The notes beneath the pieces are model-generated. The model searched no databases. It was not told where the DNA came from and saw nothing but the letters and a program-made list of their open reading frames with translations. From the NCBI GenBank assembly GCA_964016885.1, contig OZ024762.1:6324001-6388000 (forward strand): a stretch of 64,000 bases of DNA. Reading direction: 5' to 3'. The position numbers and the translations under genes are program-made. Below, in pieces: positions 23,901-54,400 of the stretch. Position 1 is the first letter of the stretch; each line of letters starts with the position of its first letter. The stretch comes from Eledone cirrhosa. Lineage: Eukaryota.

Positions 23901-26900
23901 AATGTATCTATATATTACTATTACTGTCGTGTATCAATGTAGGTTTATATTACTGTTGTGTACCAATGTATGTATATATATCACTGTCATGTGCTGATGT
24001 ATGTATATATTACTATTACTGTCATGTACCAATGTAGGTATATACAGGGTGCGGACGATATTTGTTCGCAAGATTACTGTCTAGGAAAAAACAAGTTTTA
24101 TTTTTTAAGATATATTTATCAAACTTGAGTCGGTTTGTCTTCATGACTTGTTCTTTCGATCTCACTCGATGAACCTGCCATTGGCTTTGATGACGGCCTC
24201 AAGGCGGCCTCGGAACCGGCTACAGGCCTTTGTCACTGTCCTCCCCCCGACTTAGGCCCCTAAAGGCACTTGTGATCCTGGCCTTCAGATCATCTTTCAT
24301 ATTGCAGCTAGATCTGTTGGTGTCTCGTGCCACTGCGCCCCACACAAAGAAGTAAAGGGGGTTGCAGTCAGGCAAGTTGGAAGGCCAGATGTCAGGTGAA
24401 GTGTGGTCAACGAAGTTCTCTGACAGCCAGGCTTGGGTCTTTCGGCTGGTATGGCAGGGCGCTGAGTCTTGCTGCCATACGTACGGCCTACCTGGTTGAT
24501 CCAGGGCTTTACTACCTCGCTCAGAACTTGGATGTAGCCATCGGTGTTCAGCTGGAGGCCCTCAGGGAAGAAGTGAGGTGGCATGACGTCACCTTGACTG
24601 CTGACGACACCTAAGACCAATGTTGTCGCTGGAAACTTTGTCTGCATGACTCTGGGCACATCTTTGGATGAGACAGCGAGCCACCTGTTGTTCTGTGAGT
24701 TGATCTTCTGGTCCTTATTTGTCCTCCCGGTGCGGATTCCAAGAAGAACTATGTGTCTCTTCCACAAATTTGGAGGTTCAAAATTATTCATAATCAATTA
24801 TTCTGAAAAAAAATAATGGAAATACAGTCACTATTTTTATGAAGACAAGAGTGACAACGGAAGTAAAAAAAATTTGCATAAAATTAGCAGTTGAAAATTG
24901 CGAACAAATATCGTCCACACCCTGGATATATGTATGCATATATATATTTCTGTATACATACATATATATATCAGTCATGTGCCAATTAAGCTATACAATG
25001 CCGTGCTATGTACCAAAGTAGTTGATGACGACTAATGTAATGCAAAGGAAATAGTGATGACGATGTGGATGACAGTGATGATGATGATGATATTCTAGAT
25101 GTATGGTGATGGTATGAGGAGGGATGGCAGTGTAATGAGGATATTCGTGGTGGTAATAGTGGTGATGTTACGAGGATGGTGGTGGCGGTGGTGATGTTTC
25201 GAAGATGATGGCGATGTTATGAAGATGATGGTGACGTTATTATGAAGATGGTGGTGTCGGTGATGATCATGATGATGACCTCTTCCAACCTAAATGACAT
25301 GATGAGATTTTATGCCACTTTTCTTGTTCTTTCTGTGAAGGGCTGCCTGGGATTTTGCTCTGGACATGTGTCTACGTCAACTGTCCAAGATAGTGGACAG
25401 CGATGGCACACAATTTGACCACAGCACTTTCTTTGCACAACAGCTAACAGCATTCCAAGTTTGGTTAACGTATGGTTCTGAGACGCGGAATCCACCTGAA
25501 CAGTTACCAATTGTATTACAGGTAATAACACGATATATTATTACAATATAGGGTACATTTTAATAATTATATTACAGGTAATAACACGATATATTATTAC
25601 AATATAGGGTACATTTTAATAATTATATTACAGGTAATAACACGATATATTATTACAATATAGGGTACATTTTAATAATTATATTACAGGTAATAACACG
25701 ATATATTATTACAATATAGGGTACATTTTAATAATTATATTACAGGTAATATTACATGATATATTATTTCAATATAGGGTACATTTTAATAATTATATTA
25801 CAGGTAATATTACATGATATATTATTTCAATATAGGGTACATTTTAATAATTATATTACAGGTAATATTACATGATATATTATTACAATATAGGGTACAT
25901 TTTAATAATTATATTACAGGTAATAACACGATATATTATTACAATATAGGGTACATTTTAATAATTATATTACAGGTAATAACACGATATATTATTACAA
26001 TATAGGGTACATTTTAATAATTATATTACAGGTAATAACACGATATATTATTACAATATAGGGTACATTTTAATAATTATATTACAGGTAATAACACGAT
26101 ATATTATTACAATATAGGGTACATTTTAATAATTATATTACAGGTAATATCACATGATATATTATTTCAATATAGGGTACATTTTAATAATTATATTACA
26201 GGTAATATCACATGATATATTATTTCAATATAGGGTACATTTTAATAATTGTATTACAGGTAATATTACATAATATTTTATAATATACACTATGCCCCCA
26301 CACCCTCCCAATGCAAGGTGGACGTGGAGGTGCCACGGCAAAAAAGCACCCAGCCCACACTGTAAATGAGGTTGGTGTTAGGAAGGGCATCCAGCTGTAG
26401 AAATCAAGCCAGAATCAGTTCTTGTATGAGCAAGACAAGGTCAGCTGACCGGACATTGCCCACAACAGGACAACCCGTCTCACTCCTGTTGGAGAAACGC
26501 CTCCCTCGTTGACCTCCACCACTTTCTATTTGGTTTTGGTCATATTTTTAGGGTGTGTAGCTGTATTACTGGTAATATCACATGGTGTATTATTACAATA
26601 TTTTATTACTGGTAATATCACATGGTGTATTATTACAATATTTTATTACTGGTAATATCATACAATGAAACATTATTATAATATAGGATATATATATATG
26701 GGCGGTGGATTGGCAGTATCGGTAGAGGGTCGAACGCCATGTTTTGAGGTAAAGAGTTACGGCCCTTTATGGTCTGGTTTCAAACCCCGCCGAGGTTAAC
26801 TTTGCCTTTCATCCTTACAGGGTCGATAAAATAAAGTACCAGTAATACACTGGGATAATTGCTGGCCTTGTGCCAAAAGTAGAAACAATTACAGGTAATG

Positions 26901-32900: not shown

Positions 32901-34789
32901 CCCTTCAAATTCTTGATTATTTTCAAAATGATTTGAAAATCCTAGGCAGTGTCTTTCATTAGAAATATAGTAACGAAAGGATTAAATTGTTTATCTATCT
33001 ATATATTACTAAAAGTCTGTGATTGCTTGTCTGTAATGTAATACAGCCAAAAGGGCGCATAATGGGAAAATAGTCTGAAAGGAAGTTGACCCTGAAATGG
33101 GAATACAAATGGAATAAAACAAGTTTTGCGTAAATTGGGGCACATGTTCCCGAGATATGGGGTTTTCTGGGTACCTTCATAAATAGAGAGAGAGAAGGAT
33201 AGAGAGGAAGAGATAGTGGTTGTGAGAAAGTAGATTGTGTGAGAAACATAGAGAGGGAAAGAGGAGACAAGGAAAATGGAAGAGAGAGAGAGAGAGCTGG
33301 TGGTGGTGTTGAATGAAATTGCAACCGGTGACTTCAAAGAAACGAATACAGCATTACTGAATCCTGATAAATAGAAACGGTTTCTAAGTGTGTGTGAATA
33401 TATATATATACATAAAAATATATATGTGTGTGTGTATATATATATATATATATACATAAAAAAAAAATATATATATATATATATATACATAAAAATATAT
33501 ATGTCAGGTCGCTCTCGAGTGCTACTGGTAACATGTAACCCAGTACAACCAGTCTCATGGTCGGGTCGCTGGCAACTAAACTGGCAACACCACCAAACTT
33601 GCTTGGTGAGGAGGGTGATATTTGGACACCCTGCAGGATGAAATCCCACTGAGGTTAACTTTGCCTTTCATCATTACAGGGTTGATAAAATAAAGTACCA
33701 GTAACACACTGGGATCGATTTAATTGACTTTCCTCTCCTCCAAAATTGTTGGCTTCGTGCCTAAATCAGAAACCTTTATGTATAAGAAACTTTTTTTTTT
33801 TTACTAAAAAACTTGACCTTTCTACATCTGTCTTTCTCCTTTACAGGTCTGGATGAACTATGAAGCAGCACGATGGTGTGGAGTCCGAGACCTTGCACAT
33901 GAAAAATTGAGCAGCCTGCTCACTGATTCTGTACCTGAGGCAAGCCTAACAATTCTTTCTTAAGTTTTTTCTTTTTCTTACTAATTTAATAATTTCTTTA
34001 AATATTATCATCATCAATTTTACATTCATGTCTCCCTGCCCCACCTCTGGAGTCCTCGACTGTATTTATACAGATCTGTATTTATAGTATATTTCAGCTG
34101 CTTTGTGTAGCCAAAATGCTTGAAACTGCCTCTTGTTCTACAGTGAAAAATTGCATATTTTAAAGTGTATAAACATTTTGAAATATGCAATTTATCTAAA
34201 ACTAAGTGAGAAATTAAGCATAAGAGGGATCAGATGCTGTTTAATTGAGAGGAGATTATGTTGGTATGGTCATGTGATGCCCATGAAAGACGGCAGCTGT
34301 GTAAAAAAGTGCAGGGCGATCAAAATTGATGGAAGTTACGGAGTAGGAAGACCCCAAAAGACTTGGGACGAGGTGATAAAAGCTGACCTTGCACCTCTCT
34401 AAGACAATGTCACTGGATCAAGATCTTTCGTGCTATGCAGTTATACAGAAGACCCGCCTTCCCTTGTGCACAGACTTAAACTTACAGCCTTTTAATCCAT
34501 TATACAATCCCTACACTGCCAACCCACTTCTGCTCACACTACCCTTACTCTGTAAAGTTATGCTGATATCAGAAAACATCCAGCCCACACTGTAAAGTGG
34601 TCATGTAGGAGACACGGCAAAAAGCACCCAGCACACAGTGTAAATGTAGTTACCGTCAGGAAGGGCACCCAGCCAGAAGCAGTCCTATATGAGCGAGTCA
34701 CGGTTATCCCACCCAACTTGCCTCTAATGGGACAAACCTGTCTAACCCATGCTAGCGTGGAAAATAGACATTAAACAATGGTGATGATG

Positions 34790-34820
<31 letters not shown>

Positions 34821-37800
34821 ATCATCATCACATGTCTATTTTATTTTTCAAGATTGCATAGGTTAGACAGATTGTCACGAAATGAGGCTAGACAGGTCAA
34901 GAGCCCACGTCTCGCTCATATAGATCTGTATTTTGGCTTAGCTTCTACAGCCAGATGCTCTTCCAAATGCCAAACACACACATATATAATATGATTTTAC
35001 AGATCGATATGATATTACAATGTTTAAGGACATAATACATTATCTCAAACCAGTCACTTACTAACTTGTTCAATAATATCAGGGATAATTTCTGCATTAG
35101 AACATACTCATTTAGATTTAGTAGTAATGTGACAATACCTAAAGTATACTAGGGCGATCAATAAATTTAACATTGAGACATTAAGATCTTGTTTCAATTC
35201 AGCCAAACTATTAACTGCAGTTTTGTAAAAAGTGCTAATTAAGTTAATTAGGATGTAATTTTAGACTGTTGGAATCTCACCAGTAAACACTGTAGAAAGA
35301 CCATTAAACATCCCAAAAGAGATTTGTTGGTTTGTGTGTGGTAGACAGTTGCTGCAATAAGACAATGGTCAGCTATGCTGTTAGGGAAAATGGCAGGAAA
35401 ATAATAAATTATAATTGTCTTCATCGACACATACAAACACACACAAACACACACACACACGCACACATATAGTCTGACGAGCAGATCAATACTGGAGTCG
35501 GGTCCATAACTCCTATGGGTTACCTTGAGCCAATCCTCTGCAAAACATGAGTAACAGGTCAATATGCAATAAATATTTTTTATATGTAAACGAAACTTCC
35601 TCGTTTTTTCTATTATATACACTCTGCTTGTGCATAGAGTGGTTGATTTGGTACCAATACCAGTAATTCGCTGTACTACCCACACTATATATGTATGTAT
35701 ATATATATGTGATTCAGTGAATTACTGGTGGTGGTACCAAACAGTTTATATTTTGTTGAATCACCAGTCTGATGAGTAAATTGATCCTGGAGTTGAGTCC
35801 ATAACTTCCATGGGTGACTTTGAGCCAATCATCTGTGAAATCATGTAAACAAAACTTCATTTTTCTTATATATATTTACACACGCACAAATAACATATTA
35901 ACAAATGGCCCTCCAAAGTAGAAGAGTTTACTCATTTATGATTTGACAATAAACAATATTTTTCATACATCGTGGGTTTCAAAAAAAGAAAATTTCAACA
36001 TAACAACCCCCAGTGCTACAACTTCTCTCTCTCTCTCTCTCTCATACCATCCCCTGTGTGATTAAATAAATTCCACCACCACCACTCAGTTCTATCGATC
36101 ACGCACTTACCTTTTACACCAGGTGTAATATATTGTTAGCATTTAAATACATTGCATTCTCATATTTTCACTCTTCAAATACTTTCAGGTTCGTGCCGCT
36201 GCTGTGTACGCGCTGGGAACTTACATCAGCTGTTGTTCTTCAGCACGTAGTGACCACGCCAGCAACATAGACTTAGGTATTGGGATGAATTTGACACATA
36301 TTATACATGATGGAAGTTCCCTTGTGCGAAAGGTATATATATATTTCATATTTGACTATATTTTCATCATCATTTTATGTTCACTTTTCGCTGTGTGTAG
36401 TGTACAGATCAAATTAGTACTTAATTGGTGTTACTCTCCTCCCAAATTGGTCCGGAACTCTGTCTCGCTTACACGCGTTTTGACTTGGTTCCTATGACTG
36501 AATGTCCCTACTCATGGCAACCACTTTACAAAAAGTAGAGTGTATTTTATCATGGTACCAGTATTAAGAAAGTTGTCATGTCCTTGACGTGACTGCTTAT
36601 TTTTTACGTGGTTTCTATAGCAGGATGTCCTTCATAATGTCAGTTATTTTACTAAGCTGTTTTATCAAGGTTCAAGCATCAGAGAGATTATCTTGTTGAC
36701 ATAACTGAAGAGCTGTCTCAACACTTTTGACAGGGTTTCTATAAGTGTTACTGTTACTATTCTTGCTGTTAGCTTCACTTTGCCAATTTGTTGCCTCTCA
36801 AAGAAGACTATCATTTACTGACTTACATCTCTTTACATTCTCTCTTCCAATTTTACTCTTATTGGTTTTTGTCTTTTATTCCTTTTGTCATGGTTTTTAT
36901 GTCAATAAAAATATTGTACCAGTAATATATATTCTGTAAAGTGGTAGTGCTAGTGCCATAACAAAAGAAAGGTGGTAGTACTGGTGCCATGGCAAAAGGT
37001 ACCCAGTCCAGCCTGTAAGCCCAAAACAAATCTGTATGAGCAAAACATGGTCACCTGATCCGGCTTGACTCAATGTGACGACCTGTCTAACCTATGCTAA
37101 CGTGGAACATAGATATTGAATGATGATCTGTGTTGTTGTTTTCTAATCTTGTGACCTCTTATGACCTCTACTGCTGTGATTTTGTGACCTTTACTACTAT
37201 GAGTCCTTGTGACCTCTACTACTGTGTGTCCTTGTGACCTCTACTGCTATGATCTTGTGACCTCTCCTGCTGTGATCTTGTGACCTCTCCTGCTGTGATC
37301 TTGTGACCTCTGCTGCTGTGATCTTGTGACCTCTACTGCTGTGACTCCTTGTGACCTCTACTCTCTGCGACTCCTTGTGACCTCTACTCTCTGTGACTCC
37401 TTGTGACCTCTGCTGCTGTGATCTTGTGACCTCTACTGCTGTGACTCCTTGTGACCTCTACTCTCTGTGACTCCTTGTGACCGCTACTCTCTGTGACTCC
37501 TTGTGACCGCTACTCTCTGTGACTCCTTATGACCTCTACTGCTGTGACCTTGTGACCTACTGTTGGACCTCTTTATAACCTCTGTTTCTAGGAACTTGCT
37601 GTTGCTCTGGGTGGTCTAGTCCAACAGTTTGAGTCCCCATTTGTTGCTGTAGCTTCTCAGATGATAGGAGAAGAACGACTGCGGGAGAAGAATGCTCCTA
37701 TGATAGCCGCTGTGACAGCTGGTGGGTGGAATGTTGTCGCACCAATATCTTCAGGTTTGTATATATTCATTCTCATTTACACACCCTTTTGAAACTAACC

Positions 37801-40800
37801 TCGGCTTAAAACCACTTCTAGTTCTATAAATCAAAACCACCAATTTAAAGGTTCTTATTTAACCATTTTAATGCTAACCCCTGCTCTGCCAAAGCCAACA
37901 CTGGTTCTATGAAACAAAACTACTCATTTTAAAAGGTTCCTATTTAACCCTTTTGGCACTAACCTCAACCAAAACCATCCATTTTAAAGGGTTCTTATTT
38001 AACCCTTTTGATACTACCCTGGCCAAAACTATCCCTGGTCTTATGAAACAAAACTACTCATTTTAAAGTGTTCCTATTTAACACTTTGTACGTTTAACAT
38101 TTTGTACATTTAAACCAGCTCAGATTCTATGAAACAAAATCACAAATTTTAAAGGGTTTCTAATTAAATTTAAAAGGACCTTTTAATTTACTATCTTAGT
38201 AATGAAATAATTTATAATTTTAGGAAAACCCTAAAAATTCTTCAATTAGTTAATTGAAACACAGTGTTTCTATTTAAATTAAAATTTTCCAATATAATTG
38301 TATATAAAAAAAACATTAATTTAGTGTTTTAATAAAGTAAATATTTTAGTAAATCCCTAAAAAATTTTCATTAACCCATTTGATATGAAACTCCTTGAAA
38401 CTGCTCTTGATTTGTGATACAAAGTCGTTAATTTTCAATTGTTTATCCTTGTATAATAAATAATTAGGAAAATAGCTGTGAAAATATTAAATGCATTTGA
38501 TGGCTTTCTTTCTGTGTTGCCACCAATGTGTCTTACACAGTATTTCAGACAGCTATCTGATATTCTCTAATTACTCTCTACTTCAGAGAGCTGTCTGGCA
38601 CTCTCTAATTACTCTCTACTTCAGAGAGCTATCTGACACTCTCTAATTACTCTCTACTTCAGACATCTATATGACACTCTCTAATTACTCTCTACTTCAG
38701 ACAGCTATCTGATACTTTCACTTTACTCTCTATTTCAGACAGCTATCTGACACTCTCACCTGACTATCTACTTCAGACAGCTATCTGATACTCTCACTTT
38801 ACTCTCTACTTCAGAGAGCTATCTGACAATCTCACCTGACTCTCTACTTCAGAGAGCTATCTGACACTCTCACCTTACTCTCTATTTCAGACGGCTATCT
38901 GACACTACCTATTGCTGGCATGAAACGTAGTGCCTCACGGGGCAGCCTCAAATCCACAACCAGTCGTAAGTATATATTTTCCTCTCCTATTTCTTAAATC
39001 TAAATGGTCATCATCATCATCATCATCTTCGTTTAACGGCCATTTTCCACGCTAGCATGGGTTAGACGGGGGTTGGTCGGGTGACTGTGTCTCGCTCATA
39101 TAGGACTATCTGGCAGGTTTTCTACGGCTGGATGCCCTTCTTAACACCAACCACATTTACAGCGTGGACTGGGAGCTTTTTACCGTGTTACCTACACGGC
39201 CACATTACAGCGTGGACTGTGTGTTTTTTTGTCTTGACACCTACACGGCCACATTACAGCGTGGACTGTGTGTTTTTTTGTCTTGACACCTACACGGCCA
39301 CATTACAGCGTGGACTGTGTGTTTTTTTGTCTTGACACCTACACGGCCACATTACAGCGTGGACAGTGTGTTTTTTTGTCATGACACCTACACGGCCACA
39401 TTACAGCGTGGACTGTGTGTTTTTTTGTCTTGACACCTACACGGCCACATTACAGCGTGGACTGTGTGTTTTTTGTCTTGACACCTACACGGCCACATTA
39501 CAGCGTGGACTGTGTGTTTTTTTGTCTTGACACCTACACGGCCACATTACAGCGTGGACTGTGTGTTTTTTTGTCTTGACACCTACACGGCCACATTACA
39601 GCGTGGACTGTGTGTTTTTTTGTCTTGACACCTACACGGCCACATTACAGCGTGGACTGTGTGTTTTTTTGTCTTGACACCTACACGGCCACATTACAGC
39701 GTGGACAGTGTGTTTTTTTGTCATGACACCTACACGGCCACATTACAGCGTGGACTGTGTGTTTTTTTGTCTTGACACCTACACGGCCACATTACAGCGT
39801 GGACTGTGTGTTTTTTTGTCTTGACACCTACACGGCCACATTACAGCGTGGACTGTGTGTTTTTTTGTCTTGACACCTACACGGCCACATTACAGCGTGG
39901 ACTGTGTGTTTTTTTGTCTTGACACCTACACGGCCACATTACAGCGTGGACAGTGTGTTTTTTTGTCATGACACCTACACGGCCACATTACAGCGTGGAC
40001 TGTGTGTTTTTTTGTCTTGACACCTACACAGCCACATTACAGCGTGGACTGTGTGTTTTTTTGTCTTGACACCTACACGGCCACATTACAGCGTGGACTG
40101 TGTGTTTTTTTGTCTTGACACCTACACGATCTCGATCTCATCTCATTTATTTGGACTGGATGTTGTGGTACCAACTTTGCAGAGAGAGGGTGGTCGTTAG
40201 ATGATAATGATGATGACTAGCTGGGAAAATGGTCATTAGATGATAATGATGATGACTAGCTGGGAAAATGGTCATTAGATGATGATGATGATGGCTAGCA
40301 GAGAATGTGGTCATTAGATGATGATGATGATGATGATGATAAATTTTGGGTTTTGTTTGTTTTGTTTGTTTTTGTAGGTCATGGTTTATCAAGCAGCAAC
40401 AGCATTTCAAATTTGGAGGGGTTAATCATGCCAGAGTCTAGTGCTGGGGCTGCTACTACTTCAGGTAGTGGCACTCTCTGTGTTGCTAATAGTGACCGCA
40501 TCAGGCGTACATCATCCAGCTCCAACCTGTCTACGTGCACATCTATGGTGAACAATGTCTACGTTAGTGTTTGGCGTACACTGCTGCTGCTCTCTTCAGA
40601 CCCACACCCCGATGTCATGGAAATAGCAAAGACTGTTATAAACGTCATCAAACTTAAGGTACGTCTTCATGTCTTCACGCAACTGTGTTACCTCGTGGTG
40701 GCGGTGGCGGTGGTGGCGGTGGTGGTAATGATGTTGTGGTGGTGGTGGTGGTGGTGGTGCTGGTGCATTGTGGTGGTGTTGTTGTGGAAGTGGTGATGGT

Positions 40801-45486: not shown

Positions 45487-48400
45487 CATCACCATCATCA
45501 CCATCACCATCACCATCATCATCACCACCATCATCATGTCTGCTTCTTCGTGCTTGCATGGGTTTGGAAAGCTTTTGTATCCTTTCCTCATCGTCTTTGT
45601 GAGGCTCACCATTCTAAGATCATCTTTCAACACTTTGGCTCAGGTTTTCCTCTTCTGCAGCTTCCATCCTCCAATAACATTATCATTGCACCAGGTGTCA
45701 CCTCTAATAACATTATTATTACACCTATCAACTTTATCAACCCTAACAACCCTGTTATCACTCCTAACAACCTTGTTATCAACCCTAACAACCTTGCTAT
45801 CAACCCTAACAACCTTGTTATCAACCCTAACAACCTTGTTATCAACCCTAACAACCTTGCTATCAACCCTAACAACCTTGTTATCAACCCTAACAACCTT
45901 GTTATCAACCCTAACAACCTTGTTATCAACCTAACAACCTTGTTATCAACCCTAACAACCTTGCTATCAACCCTAACAACCTTGCTATCAACCCTAACAA
46001 CCTTGTTATCAACCCTAACAACCTTGCTATCAACCCTAACAACCTTGCTATCAACCCTAACAACCTTGCTATCAACCCTAACAACCTTGTTATCAACCCT
46101 AACAACCTTGTTATCAACCCTAACAACCTTGTTATCAACCCTAATAACCTTGTTATCAACCCTAACAACCATGATATTACCCCTAGCAACCATGTTATCA
46201 ACCATAACAACCATGTTATCACCACTAACAACCGTGTTATCACCCCTAACAACCGTGTTATCTCTTCTATGTTACAATTTCTGTCTAACTTAACTACCAT
46301 TACCACCACCACTTCTACTAATACTACTACCACTACTAATACTACTAAAGGTGGTTGACGAGCGCTTAGCTGTTAAGTGAGGATGCCTTAGGCTGTGATT
46401 TGATAAATTTGTTTGTTTCAGGCTACAGAGCCGTTGACTAAAAATCACTTCTCTTCTAATTCCTGCCAGTCTGCACCCTCAAGTCCTCCTGGCCGAGGCC
46501 CCAACTTTGCTGCAATGAGGAAGTAAGTAATCTTGTTGGTGTGTTATTGTGTTTTATTGTTTTATTACTTCGTTATTTTACTGTTATTATTAACAGAATC
46601 GTCAAAGAGTGGTGGATTGGCAGTATTGGTAGAGCGTCGGACAACATGCTTTGCGGCATAGAGTTACGACCCTTTATGTTCTGAGTTTAAATCTTGCCAA
46701 GGTTAGCTTTGCCTTTCATCCTTCTGGGGTCAATGAAATAAAGTACCAGTAACACACAGGAGACGATTTAATCAACTTTCCCTCCCCCCAAATTGTTGGC
46801 TTTGTGCCTAAATCAGAAACAATTAATAACAGAATCATTAGAGCATCAGACAAAATGCTTTGTGAGATTTGTTTTGGCTCTTTCGATACCAAGCTATTTG
46901 ACACCACCCCGGGTTCTAGGATACCAAGCTATTTGACACCACCCCTGGTTCTAGGATACCAAGTTATTTGATACCACTCCTGGTTCTAGGATATTAAACT
47001 ATTTGACACACTATCACCCCAGGGTTTTAAGATACTAAACTATTTGATACCACCCCTGGTTCTAGGATACTAAACTATTTGATACCACCCCTTGTTCTAG
47101 GACACTAAACTATTTGATACCACCCCTTGTTCTAGGACACTAAACTATTTGACACCACCCCTGGTTCTAAGATATTAAACTATTTGATACCACCCCTGGT
47201 TCTAGGACACTAAACTGTTTATTTTAGAGTCTTTATATTTTACTAAAAACCTTCCATCATTTCTTGTATAAACTTCTCTTAAGCTATATTCCAAACACCA
47301 GCATGACGATGAGAAAGTTAGTTGTATTTTTAAATCTTTTAAGATTCCTGATTATTTTCAAAATGATTTGCAAATTTTAAGCAGTGTCTTTCATTAGAAC
47401 ATTCGTAATGAAAGGGTTAACATTTTGAAATATTTTAAACTTAATGGACTTGTATATAAAACAATCCATGTTTTTTTGCACAAGAATTTTTGGATAATAA
47501 TCTTTCTTTCTATTTTGACCTATATGCTAGTACACCATCAATTAACGTTCTCTTTCCCTGCTAGCAAGGGTTGGATGGGTTTTCACAGACAGTCAGTACT
47601 GAAGTGGGACTACTGATCTCCCAGACAGGCTGGGGCGTCTGCATTTTGCTTACATACAGTCCTACATTCTACCAAGTGCATTTTATCATGGCACCAACAC
47701 AATAGAAGCTGTCATGTCTTTGACACAATTGAAGGTTTTCCAAATTTTAAGAATTTATTTTTAATTTTTTAATTAAATAAAGGATTGAATTGGGTAAAAT
47801 ACCCTTCATCATCATCGTTTTTATGTGTTTTTATGCTTGCATGAATTGGATGAGTCCTTTTCAGCACAGTATCTCTCTACTTGCTATGTTCCTTTGTCAT
47901 TTCGTCTGTGATTGTTTCTAAAATATGTGGTCCTGGGTTCATTCCCTCTACGTGGTACACATGGGCAGGTGTCTTCAGCTATAGCACAGGGTTGACCATA
48001 GCCCTGTGAGTGAAATGTGGTAGATTGGTCACTTTGTGAAAGCCTGTTGTAAGTGTTTATCTATGTCTAAACTTTCAAACCCTTAGAGATGTAAAAACAA
48101 AAAAAGACAAGCACCTCTGTAAGTGCTTCTATCTACTTTTTCCATTTCTAAGGGTGTTTTTACCAAGTTTTCTCAGCTATTATTTATAGTGATTGATGAT
48201 GATGATTTTCAAATCCTCACACTGTTCCAGAAATCATAATGTTTAATAAAATATCTTTTCCAGTCATTCAGCAGACATGCCAGATTCCAAATTTGATATG
48301 AAAGTTGACCAAAACAATGAAAAACGGCCTCGTAGCCAAAATTCTGAAAGTTCAACTGAGGGTCGAAGAGAAATAACAAGCCCGAATAAGAAGAGCTCAT

Positions 48401-51400
48401 CATCAGTACAGACTAAAGATTCGGGCTTGGGGACACTGAACAAAGGTGCAAATATGGCGAATGTCATGACCAGCTCCCAGGAACTTCGACGCCACCAGCA
48501 ACAGCAGCAGCAAGGGACACTATCCGCTGGCTCAGGAACTCATCGACGAGATAATTCTGGTGAGCGGAATCGCCGTAGTCCATCGCACAGTGATACAAAT
48601 GGCGGGGACAGTGACTCTGCCAAGTCATCAAAGCGTGGCTCCCGTAATAGACCAGCATCTCCTGCAAGCCAGCTGATCCCATATTCAGCGCAATTCTTAC
48701 CAACACGGAAGATGTTTGATAAGGGGCCTGGACATGTGAGTGTAACCCTCTCTTTTGATCAATATCATATATATATATATATATAGGAAAAAGTATGACC
48801 CCGACGGCAGAGCTCAAGCCGTTTCGACGGCTATTTCTGGACAGAAATAACCGTTGAAACGGCTTGAGCTCTGCCGTCGGGGTCATACTTTTTCCTATTT
48901 CCCACTCTACTTCCCTAAGTATTGAGTACTCTGGTGCGTTATGGTCCATCTGGTTCCTTACCACAATTCCATTGTTATATATATATATTGAACTGTCTGA
49001 TCCATATATATGTTAACCTGTCAGATCAATGTGAGAGGGTGAATTGTCTGATCAAAGATGAACTGTCAGATCAATATAATGTGATAGGCTGAACTGTCTG
49101 GTCAATGTATAATTTGTATTAAATTTTATTAACCTATTTTAATATGAAACTACTTAAACTGTCCCTGATTCTATGATACAAAAATGTTTATTTTACAGTT
49201 TTTTTTATATTCATATGTGATAACAAAAATGTTAGTGTTCATATTTATCTCAAAAACCACCACAATTTTATGTAAGAACTTTTGTGATCTTCCAAACACC
49301 AGCTTGATAATGAGGAAGATCGTTATATTACACTAAATTCTTGATTATTTTCCTAATTAATTGAAAACTAGTGGGTTTAATGAAATTGTTAAACATCACC
49401 TTATTTCACAGAACCCCTGAGTTTTTTTCCATTGAGACCCATTTGTTTGTTAGAGACTTCTATATGTGTGGGATGGTTTTCTCTGATAGGTTGATGATAA
49501 AAAAGATGAACCAGGAAATAAGGAGTTCAAAGAGCCATTGGTCACAACGGAATTCTTCAAGTGGAGCAGCAAGTATTTCGCACAACCGTTGAGACCTGGA
49601 GATGAAGGAGACCCTGAGAGTAAGCTGTCGATGGAACGAGACTACAGATTCCAACGAAATGCTACCGTTAGGAATGAAGCTAAACTTGAGCAGTTCAAAG
49701 CGGGTGAGTTTCAAGCTGCTCCCCCTCATTACTATCATCATCATCACCATCACCTCCTCTTCTTACTCCTTGTAATGGGGAATTAACTGGCTAGTTTTTT
49801 CACTTTTGCTGTTATCATGGCTATCTTTCATTGATCTCCCCTTGAGTCATGTTTCACTGTTATCATGGCTATGTTTCACTGTTATCATGGCTATCTTTCA
49901 CTGATCTCCCCTTGAGTCATGTTTCACTGTTATCATGGCTATGTTTCACTGTTATCATGGCTATCTTTCACTGATCTCCCCTTGAGCCGTGTTTCACTGT
50001 TATCATGGCTATGTTTCACTGATCTCCCCTTGAGCCGTGTTTCACTGTTATCATGGCTATGTTTCACTGTTATCATGGCTATCTTTCACTGATCTCCCCT
50101 TGGGCCGTGTTTCACTGTTATCATGGCTATGTTTCACTGTTATCATGGCTATCTTTCACTGATCTCCCCTTGGGCCGTGTTTCACTGTTATCATGGCTAT
50201 CTTTCACTGTTCAACTTTTGATCCACGTTTCAGGCCACAATCGATTTGATGATCAGATATTTGTCAATAAGAACTCAGGAAGTCCTGCTGTATTGCGTTT
50301 CCACCCCTATGAAGCCCACTTAGCAGTTGCAGACAAGGACAATATTAGGTAAGGGGTTGTAGGGGAGTGTTTGAATTTTATTTTTATTTATTTCAATGTT
50401 TAACCTTTTAGCTATAAAACATTTGGTTGTTTACTATCTTTAATGTTGGAGGTAGAAAGGATCCGAAAAGATGATATAGATTTATAGGCTGCGTGTTCAT
50501 GTTTTTAGTCCATGTGGAAAGATCAAATCAGAAAGTACATGTTGAAATATAACAAAGGTTTATTTTCTTCCGTAAATTAATACAAGCACTTACAGAGTGG
50601 AAAGCTGCAAGCATACCACATAATTGAGTTGAAGGAAAACAACGTGTGTGAAATATAGGAAGAATGTTGTTGGGTCCTTGCCGAGAGGGCAGGGTAAGTG
50701 CTACATTTTGTGAGGTATCAACCAGCAACGTAATTAGTGAGGTCTTGTGTCGACGAAATGAAAGCCGCAACTGATGGGTAGAAGTGGAAAAAGGTGCGAA
50801 GCAACTGCTGGGCGGAAGTCGTCTTTGTATTCATACGCCGCCAACCCCGAAGGGCTGGCGAGTGACAAAGCCTGACCAAACCATTCCGCAACCACGAAAT
50901 AGTGCCATTGCTTGCTACAACCTTTATATTTTTTTGTACCAGTGATTCAAGTTTCATGTTTGCTGGCCTTGTGCCAATGTTAGAAAGAATTAATATGTAT
51001 ATATTTCCATGTCTCTATTATTTTCTGCAGTATATGGGACTGGGAACAAGGTATCCAGCTTAGCTATGTGAACAGCTGCCATCCAAAGAACTGCCGAATA
51101 ACATCCATGGAGTTTATTAATCCACATGACCAGGCCCTGTTAATGTGTGGTTCAGGTAAGAATGATACGCATCCATGTTTACTCACATTTATTAATCCAT
51201 ATGACCAGGCCCTCACATTAATCCACATGACAAAGCACTGCTAACATGTGGCTCAGGTAAGGATACCCTTCCACGATTACAGATTTAGGTTTGGTGCATC
51301 TGTCATTAAAACACTCAAGAAACCTTATGAGATGCAATATCATAGGAGGCCAACTAAATCTGAATAGGTATGTAAATTTCATTTTCAAGTTCATGTGCCC

Positions 51401-54400
51401 TAGTGGTTAGGGTGTGGTCTCACAATTGTGTAGTCACGGGTTTAATTCTCGGTCAAGAAGGTATGTTGTGTCCTTGAGCAATACATTTCAATTTACGTTG
51501 CTTTAGATGAAAATAGCAACAGCAGGTGGGGTTTTACCATGTGACAGACAGGTGTCCTGGCCAAGGGGGAATCTTGTACTTAGTTGCTTAACGACAATGA
51601 AATAGCGATAAGCTCTGGCCCGGTGTGCCTCTAGAAAAAAATCCCCACCATTTGTGGATAGACTCTACCTTTTCTGAACATTGATTGACAGTGTCTGGAA
51701 TAGCTCTGGTCATGTCTCTGCAGAGTCAGGTTTGACCTGGGCTTAAGCATCATCATCATTTAACATCCACTTTCTTTGCTATGGATGGGTTGTCAGCACT
51801 TAATCAGAGCCACTGACGTCTTAGAAAGGCCAGGGGTGCTTTTCACTTACATATGTTCCTGCCCTCTACTTAGTGCATTTTATTATGGCACCAACACTAG
51901 GGAGGTTGTCATGACTTTGATAAAGCTGAAAAGTCTCCCAGCCCTTTGTTTGGCAAGTTTTCTATTATCGGATGCCCCTTTTTTTACTACCAACTATTAT
52001 ACAGTGTGTGTTGGGTGCAAAAACACCATTATCATAATGAAGCAGAATAATATCATTCTCATAATAAATACATCATTATTATTATGCCATTCTGAGTTCA
52101 AATCCTGCCGAGGTTAACTTTGCCTTTCATCCTTACGGGGTCGATAAAATAAAGTACCAGTAATGCACTGAGTAATTGCTGGCCTTGTGCCAAAAAGTAG
52201 AAACAATTATTATAATAAAAACACTATCTAAACTATAATAAAATAAGGAGTGTGGGACTGCGTCCAGAATATATTTCTTTATCCCGTTTGTAAAATAAGT
52301 TGGATTACTTTGTATAAATAATGAATGAATATTACATAATTTATCTACTAAATTTCTTTATTCTTGATTAAATATGAATAATTTTGTTGCTTATTTTAAG
52401 ATTCACTTCTTTACAATTTTCAAATGTCAACACTTCCGGTTAGCGATCGATTAAATAAACATTTATATATTCCCGTCACTAATTTTCTCCTAATACAGTT
52501 TATATATAATATCGTCTTTTTTTTTTATATATCATGAATTACGTTACTGATTAAATAAGACAGTGTAACGCAGTCTTCGTTCAATTTCTGTGTATATTGT
52601 CAATTACGATTTTATTTGATGTATCATATCTACATGTATATATACCTGCGTATAATATCAATATACACACTACACATGCTAGCAGAAAACCACCCGAAAG
52701 GTGGTTTTTCTGCTAGTTATTATAATAAAGACATCATTATTATAATAAAAACATTATCTTAATGTTAATGGAAGTCTTGTATTGTTTGTGTTCAGATGAT
52801 GGTTCTATACGAGTGTGGCGCCATTACAGTGAGCAGGGCAAGCAGGAATTGGTTACTGCATTTCAGGGTCTCTCAGAAATGTTGCCTTTACACCGAGGTA
52901 GGTATTATATTGTTGCTGGAAATGTTGCCATTACTGTTTCTCAGAAATGTTGCCTTTACACAGGTGTATTTCATTAAAAATATGGTAATGAAAAGGTTAG
53001 TTTTTTAAAACCCTAGGCAGTGTATTTCTTTAAAAATATAATTGTGAAAGGGTTAATTTAAAAAAATAATAGGCAGTGTATTTCATTAAAATATAGTAGT
53101 GAAAGGATTAATTTTTTATAGGCAGTGTATTTCATTAAAAATATAGTAGTGAAAGGATTAATTTTTTTATAGGCAGTGCATTTCATTAAAAATATGCAGT
53201 TTTCCAATACCACAAACAAAATGAAGCAATGAAGATGATTTTCTTTTCTTTGATTGTAGGTTCAGGTTTAGTAGTTAGTTGGGACCAGAACACTGAGACA
53301 TTGTTTACTACAGGTGATGCACGCATCATAAGAATATGGGACATCCACCGAGAAATGAAGACGCAGGTAAGCTCTTTTGTTTTTGTTGCTTCATTATCAA
53401 CAGCAACATTCTCATTTTATGTCTGTTTTCCATGCTAGTATGGGTTATATGGATCGTTAAAGTCCAAGATGTGTTGAGTTGGCTCATAGATTCCATATTT
53501 TGGCATGGTTTCTATGACATGATATCCTTCCTAACACTAACCTGTAAGTCTTTTATTAAGATACCAGCACCACTAATACTACTACCTCTTCTACTACTAG
53601 TTTCCTTAAGTGTACTAATGTGTTATTGTCAATATGGTATAAATTTGTATGTGTAAATTGAATTATAAAGGGAGAGAGAGAGGTGTATATATGTAAAGAA
53701 ATAATAAATGTATAACTAAATTTGATTTTGGACAAAGTGGTTTTGGATGCCATTTAAAATATATAATAATGAGGATGATGATGATAATTAATAATAATAA
53801 AACCCCCCAAAAAGGCTTTCAAATGTATCATGGAAATCACAATGCCATGTCTTTCTGATACAACCAGCTGTTATTTATTTATTTTGTTCCTTTTTAAAAT
53901 TTATTTTTAATTTCTTGAAGGAAATTTTTTTATAATTCTGTTAGAATGCATAACTCTAAGTCCTAGCAAATTTTGTTTGTTTAAATACCTATGTAAAATA
54001 GTGGTTGTACTTCACTTTTTGAGGATTGTTTTCAATACTGACATATGTCATATTCAAATGGAAACATTTTACCAGTAATGTAAACACATATATGAAATAA
54101 ATCGTAGAGGTAATAATGTTTCTTGTATTTTTTATTAATTCTGATGAATCCAATCATTGGATGATATAATTAACTAATATTTAATTATACATCTTGTGAG
54201 ATAAAAGAAACGTGCGTTAATTAATATATGATATAACTAACAGTATTTGGTTTTATTTTCAATGTTATACATGTATATGTATAACATATATATAGATTCA
54301 GTTATGTTAGCAGAAAAATGGGTAGATAAGGTGATTGCCGTAAATAGAGTGAATGACAGAATAATTAGAATAAGACTAGTCCTAAATAGAACTACTGTGA

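Follow-up and report, generated by a model that had tools for sequence, protein, structure and literature searches.

A 38-bp splice-junction array, probably a tolerated mirage repeat, before a likely ancient cassette exon with a predicted S722-type site in the Raptor gene of Eledone cirrhosa

Tandem repeats that copy a splice junction are known from amphioxus, where those of Adh3 and of the globin genes BflGb6 and BflGb9, called mirages, join the 3' end of an intron to the 5' part of the next exon in units of 10-160 bp at 81-100% identity; in the available text of that account, the AG is kept in many copies and splicing is reported as normal (PMC3087553). The 37-bp VNTR of human F7 intron 7 (IVS7) is polymorphic and presents five to nine identical donors, the exon-adjacent one alone being used, according to the accessible part of its description (PMC1557585). 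For human spl-TRs, including the CFTR TG repeat and NARS2, the available text gives a measured link between repeat length and splicing (PMC10078293), and human repeats that shift splicing also appear in the accessible portion of PMC13196383. Our literature search for a precedent of an acceptor array found none and surfaced the F7 donor array. As for the protein concerned here, a double mutant in mouse liver indicated that full inhibition of mTORC1 by AMPK depends on both the S722 and S792 sites of Raptor (PMC7528705), and S722 is reported not to be conserved in Arabidopsis (PMC4992866), as far as the available sections of both papers go. The accessible portion of an octopus mTOR paper is silent on Raptor isoforms (PMC6749024), and a search of the open-access literature, with most subscription journals outside its scope, found no published account of a spliced S722 exon in Raptor.

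We analysed a 64,000-nt stretch of Eledone cirrhosa DNA (contig OZ024762.1, positions 6,324,001 to 6,388,000 of the forward strand; hereafter the window). Spliced alignment placed a complete Raptor gene within the window, with 32 coding exons (8774-60115), 1448 aa and zero internal stops, at 96.6% identity to Octopus vulgaris and 84% to cuttlefish. Coding exon 18 (37592..37754, + strand; 163 nt, phase 0-1, donor CAG/GTTTGT) is followed by exon 19 (38891..38965, + strand; used acceptor AG 38889-38890), for which the spliced alignment, a frame check and the transcript contig described below agree; its length of 75 nt and phase of 1-1 bear out the preliminary description, which had called the exon frame-neutral. 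Exon 20 (40378..40658, + strand) holds at 40500-40529 the ten-residue motif that is the counterpart of mammalian S792, and this motif is retained upon exon 19 skipping. Within exon 18, a candidate internal alternative donor is predicted (37719..37727, + strand, cut 37721/37722; score 7.7) that would delete the GGW segment and leave the resulting frames open. Short forms matching this GGW donor were observed in molluscs and Branchiostoma, in a two-by-two pattern shared with exon 19 skipping, and an indel that fits this donor falls in exon 18 in 14 of the 30 species groups compared below. Elsewhere in the gene, exon 16 ends in a GC donor (33940-33941), and exon 21 (46422-46522) varies among models of 4 species groups in its first 16-17 residues, as an alternative acceptor.

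Directly upstream of exon 19 lies a 38-bp mirage-type minisatellite (38532..38906, + strand), made up of a partial first tail, nine full units and then the exon 19 head. TRF called the repeat at 38544-38906, with period 38, 9.6 copies, 88% matches and no indels, and ten TTCAG motifs were found at exact 38-nt steps, ending at 38548+38k (k=0..9), the final one at 38890. The ten acceptor copies of a 38-bp unit at exact spacing claimed from first inspection were thus confirmed, although strictly the array comprises nine full units plus the partial tail and the exon. Each full unit (n=9) consists of 16 nt of exon 19 head and 22 nt of intron tail and so spans the intron-exon boundary, and the splice dinucleotide is kept throughout (TTCAG in 10/10); the first acceptor copy has only a partial tail, with 14/17 nt matching. 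The G of exon 19 at head position 3 is kept in none of the nine full units nor in the first copy. As a repeat, the array is far beyond chance. With 24/38 columns of the unit invariant, the TTCAG columns showed no significant selective retention over the other columns (P 0.085). A branch-like CTGAY was found at -27 in 7/9 units and derives from exon 19's own codons; the predicted candidate branch site of the used acceptor is the CTGAC at 38861..38865 (+ strand), which lies at -27 and comes from the exon head of the last unit. The branch-like CTAAT with which the unit had also been credited was present at -17 in 4/9 units.

Mean identity between units was 86%, with interruptions in the array, and the longest exact repeat was 33 nt, or 306 nt if the neighbouring 49-bp array is counted in. 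Such an interrupted structure argues against high length variation, and the 38-bp array would appear to be an older, slower one. Tandem arrays are a common site of assembly errors, and nothing else favours an artefact here; the units differ from one another, and short-read DNA contigs of run X1, which may be the assembled sample, tile the array with zero differing letters. This explanation is largely refuted and has only a minute probability. RAD runs X5 and X6 had zero depth over the array, and a genome-wide match search found no second haplotype of it.

The use of the acceptors was assessed in the contigs of run X4 (88 million letters, 14% of words), a run that is not on record as RNA and whose spliced structure was seen on alignment. 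One 5,295-nt spliced contig at a depth of 28.7 carried exons 17-18-19-20, with the joint 37754 to 38891 bounded by GT..AG, and its loose ends match exons 17 and 20. No other splice joint into the array, upstream copies included, was listed among the X4 contigs. Regarding a skip from exon 18 to exon 20, no loose end at 37754 was among those listed, exon 20 lying outside the aligned stretch. Splicing at the authentic exon-adjacent site (38891) was therefore seen in one contig, a single spliced run of a kind that drops rare forms and displays the main form; low-level decoy use or exon 19 skipping in E. cirrhosa may be compatible with it. The claim that exon 19 is skippable accordingly stands for relatives, whose models lack it (see below), while in E. 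cirrhosa X4 displays the included form only.

We then considered the coding consequences and strength of the nine upstream TTCAG copies (span 38544..38852, + strand; AG ends at 38548, 38586, 38624, 38662, 38700, 38738, 38776, 38814 and 38852). A premature stop lies behind each of them, 16 codons past the TTCAG (32 codons past 38548), and the earlier statement that 38776 runs into a TGA was borne out by the frame check, which placed its stop 16 codons on. These stops follow from a unit that is 38 nt long and holds a TGA, so that selection need not be invoked. Among the 23 AGs in 38540-38890, just two leave the frame open, 38890 and a weak CAGAG (38853..38854, + strand; score -2.5), which would give an in-frame 111-nt exon and whose use was not seen in the X4 contig; the assertion that only the last acceptor is open is hence correct for the TTCAG copies and incorrect once 38854 is counted. 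On a matrix built from the other 30 acceptors of the gene, which themselves score -1.4 to 17.4, eight upstream copies scored 5.2-10.5 and 38548 scored -3.3, compared with 8.2 for the used copy; copy 38738 (10.5) outscores it. That 8/9 upstream copies score like real acceptors counts against a silent repeat. A reading of the units as recursive splice sites or a micro-exon array was ruled out, since the units are without donors: they read AG/AC or AG/AG after the acceptor, and any GT occurs in 1/9 units.

The preliminary description had proposed that the upstream acceptors act as decoys that compete with the real one and cause skipping or nonsense-mediated decay in proportion to copy number, which would tune AMPK control of mTORC1. 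Several findings speak for such a dial: the decoys have acceptor-like scores and all lead to early stops, the exon behind them is a cassette with an S722-type motif, and tandem repeats near human splice sites can shift splicing (PMC10078293, available text). However, 38891 alone was seen used, albeit in one contig, TTCAG is without selective retention, and the array is interrupted; the amphioxus mirages and the F7 pseudo-sites are reported as silent in the accessible parts of their descriptions. Furthermore, skipping of the exon spans distant phyla, in which the array is presumably absent, and the S792-type site lies outside exon 19. We conclude that the dial is unsupported and improbable, and that nothing supports a tie between copy number and splicing.

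The junction itself is nearly palindromic. At the real junction (38887..38902, + strand), 12/16 positions are self-complementary, and in 7/9 upstream copies 14/16 are. Pairing was predicted between neighbouring copies, which leaves the pyrimidine tract in the loop, with neighbour duplexes of -16.7 to -22.5 kcal/mol in 7/9 pairs. The predicted fold of the array reached -64.1 kcal/mol, compared with -33.8 +/- 10.6 for column-permuted arrays, of which 4/200 were as stable; the region had a folding z-score of -4.06 against shuffles, and its MFE structure pairs 38852 with 38890. The predicted unpaired value was 0.11 for the used AG; among the other 30 acceptors the median was 0.38, and 2/30 lay lower. 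A fold predicted to be stabler than permuted arrays, with the used AG predicted to be buried, was likewise counted against a silent repeat. We also observed that the repeat heads (38549-38890) share a G-to-A change relative to the exon that improves the palindrome, and that unit 2 has a further such change; these are possibly templated quasi-palindrome mutations.

The self-complementarity of the copies, the low z-score and the predicted burial of the used AG would fit structural masking, in which base pairing of the palindromic copies to the real acceptor, within the pre-mRNA, reduces the inclusion of exon 19. This explanation nevertheless rests on prediction, and the pyrimidine tract stays open (0.90). 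With one extra unit, the AG was predicted to be buried equally (unpaired 0.08), so that ten units add nothing, and masking would act as a switch rather than a dial, hinging on at least one extra copy or on an odd or even count more than on length. In addition, the assembled form is the included form, and the palindrome accounts equally well for the expansion of the junction, of which it may simply be the cause. We regard masking as unlikely.

To place the array against its background, we examined tandem repeats across the gene. Arrays of period 10 or more cover 9,038/46,995 intron bases of Raptor (19%), and arrays cover a splice site in 2/33 cases, where the null expectation averages 1.6 (P(2 or more) 0.49). 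Arrays are thus not enriched on splice sites in this gene, and finding one there is no surprise. Across 8774-60115, arrays at most 50 nt from a splice site numbered 10/33 against a null mean of 3.7, some of these being low-complexity pyrimidine tracts. A second junction array lies at the donor of exon 10 (25509..26287, + strand), with a 56-58 bp unit in about 14 copies and the donor TACAG/GTAATA; three of its downstream donors were tested, and all give stops. Smaller duplications were observed as well: the end of exon 25 and its donor are duplicated about 100 nt downstream, in one fuller and one partial copy (51185-51262), and two partial copies of the end of exon 26 directly follow its donor (52873-52963). 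Overall, local duplications were found at 2/62 splice sites of the gene versus 80/400 intron positions.

For the genome comparison, we used 60 other loci (30/72 myosin matches and 30/107 kinesin matches), which provided 74 predicted splice sites and 804 flank positions. A near copy was present at 1/74 predicted splice sites versus 111/804 flank positions, and four or more copies at 0/74 versus 57/804. Arrays at junctions are hence less frequent than arrays in introns, which is what purging of most of them would produce, and they are not unique. The rarity of arrays with four or more junction copies (0/74 predicted sites) also means that such arrays are not commonplace, and this was counted against a silent repeat. 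Elsewhere in the genome, TRF marked a short repeat derived from the predicted donor of a myosin exon (L019:1707-1763), and a predicted acceptor of a kinesin-like exon has a short duplication (L050:1306-1470).

Could a dispersed repeat have landed first and supplied both the acceptor and the first codons of exon 19? The one pointer in this direction is a 37-bp array on contig C9 (L002:1400-1715), which has about 22 nt in common with the 38-bp unit (E 5e-6). This array was dismissed as a source repeat, the likeness probably being due to chance. The unit has only 2 genome matches, the second of which is 71% identical, and exon 19 has a single match in the genome. Moreover, the first codons of the exon are conserved in cuttlefish and Argonauta: the exon head DGYLTLP is identical in Octopus, Argonauta and Sepia, where the exon 19 peptide is also conserved. 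This conservation indicates that the exon is older than the repeat and that the repeat came from the junction, not the reverse, which makes the opposite order extremely improbable.

Exon 19 encodes a ten-residue AMPK-consensus motif (38920..38949, + strand) whose serine codon, 38935-38937, corresponds to Ser760 of the model and is a predicted site. Taking the AMPK/SnRK1 consensus as worded for SnRK1 in the available text of PMC4992866, the motif has hydrophobic residues at -5 and +4 and a basic residue at -3 or -4. We aligned 28 loops with MAFFT, and in both modes the exon 19 serine fell in the column of mammalian S722; the serine of the ten-residue motif in exon 20 (Ser816) fell in the column of mammalian S792. 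Among 187 S/T windows, the S722 window was the second best, after S792. The loop is of low complexity, and motif likeness drives part of the S722 alignment. The alternative that the exon 19 motif is not the S722 counterpart was rejected, since the alignments place exon 19 at S722 and exon 20 at S792. Both the consensus fit and the location at human Raptor S722, as first proposed, are in agreement with these results.

Phosphosites within disordered loops are a frequent feature of alternatively spliced exons. We compared Raptor models within 30 species groups, each with two or more near full-length models, drawn from 22 chosen clusters, for each of which up to 15 members were listed. The comparison excluded fragments, hybrid models of Branchiostoma and species with a single model, and computed models make up most of its rows. 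Models both with and without the motif were present in 16/30 groups, namely cuttlefish (2), abalone (2), limpet, scallops (2), apple snail, clams (2), Ptychodera, spiders (2), locusts (2) and an ant; in the locust groups the deletion is longer and also removes the S792-type site. No motif match was found in three oyster groups and Branchiostoma, and the motif was absent in 0/3 mammalian groups (9 models). Models differed by indels of at least 7 residues that fell in exon 18 in 14 of the 30 groups, in exon 19 in 15, and in any other exon in at most 6. The clearest cases are in cephalopods: Sepia pharaonis models differ by exactly the 25 residues of exon 19, Logan proteins near-identical to Sepia Raptor have these residues in 2/4 cases and lack them in 2/4, and an O. 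bimaculoides model is without them. Exon-less models in so many distant animals, in which the array is presumably absent, point to skipping that is independent of the array. Exon 19 is likely an ancient and widespread cassette, as judged mostly from computed models; whether it is also a regulated one at an S722-type site we rate at about even chances.

Some individual models were informative in other respects. In the oyster models examined (P0039, P0170-P0183), the S722-type motif was absent in 15/15, which may reflect loss of the exon in this lineage. In limpet, apple snail and locust models (P0152, P0165, P0233), neither the S722- nor the S792-type motif is present; a Raptor of this form would be insensitive to AMPK here in the loop. 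In the cuttlefish model P0012, the acceptor lies 21 nt farther upstream and adds 7 residues to exon 19, from which it follows that acceptor choice can vary without the 38-bp array. A metagenome scan with exon 20 for a relative returned 300 pattern matches, 0 of them confirmed.

Taken together, the evidence suggests that the array is probably a tolerated mirage repeat whose last copy is used, standing before a likely ancient cassette with a predicted S722-type site that does not need the array. In the mechanism we propose, a 38-bp piece of the junction would have been duplicated with the help of its near-palindrome, and the array would then have grown stepwise through slippage. Since a branch-like motif, a pyrimidine tract and an AG would come with every unit, the last copy would remain a complete acceptor, and exon definition over the 75-nt exon would favour the copy closest to the donor of exon 19. 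Transcripts leaking to the upstream copies would be removed by nonsense-mediated decay. Skipping of exon 19 would yield a Raptor with the S792-type site only, and with it a weaker AMPK/14-3-3 brake on mTORC1. A more ambitious view, in which an ancient invertebrate splice switch at the S722-type site has been reset in E. cirrhosa by the presence, parity or length of a palindromic array that pairs with the acceptor of exon 19, so that the brake which energy stress puts on mTORC1 is reset too, appears quite doubtful. If the cassette reading is true, splicing can thin AMPK control of mTORC1 in molluscs, spiders, insects and hemichordates, which would be an added layer of growth control. The conserved S722-type cassette is a better lead than a repeat dial, and the array, with ten acceptors of which one is used, offers a natural test of acceptor choice.

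Compared with known systems, the Raptor array is an octopus instance of an already known repeat type, the mirage. It has the same build as the amphioxus mirages, but it occurs in an octopod, stands before a putatively regulatory, alternatively spliced cassette and has a near-palindromic unit. Like the F7 VNTR, its unit spans an exon-intron boundary and the exon-adjacent site is the one used in both; the F7 repeat multiplies a donor, whereas the 38-bp array multiplies an acceptor, and the direct counterpart of F7 in the Raptor gene is the exon 10 donor array. With the spl-TRs it shares a position close to a 3' splice site, from which a repeat could alter exon inclusion, although the junction is not copied in spl-TRs and their link between length and splicing is a measured one. 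As for the sites themselves, mammalian RAPTOR and the octopus protein each have two consensus motifs in one loop, with Ser722 and Ser792 matching Ser760 and Ser816 column for column (PMC7528705 and PMC4992866, available texts). Mammalian RAPTOR keeps S722 in 9/9 models examined, whereas the invertebrate S722-type segment is missing from some models and phosphorylation of the octopus site is a prediction.
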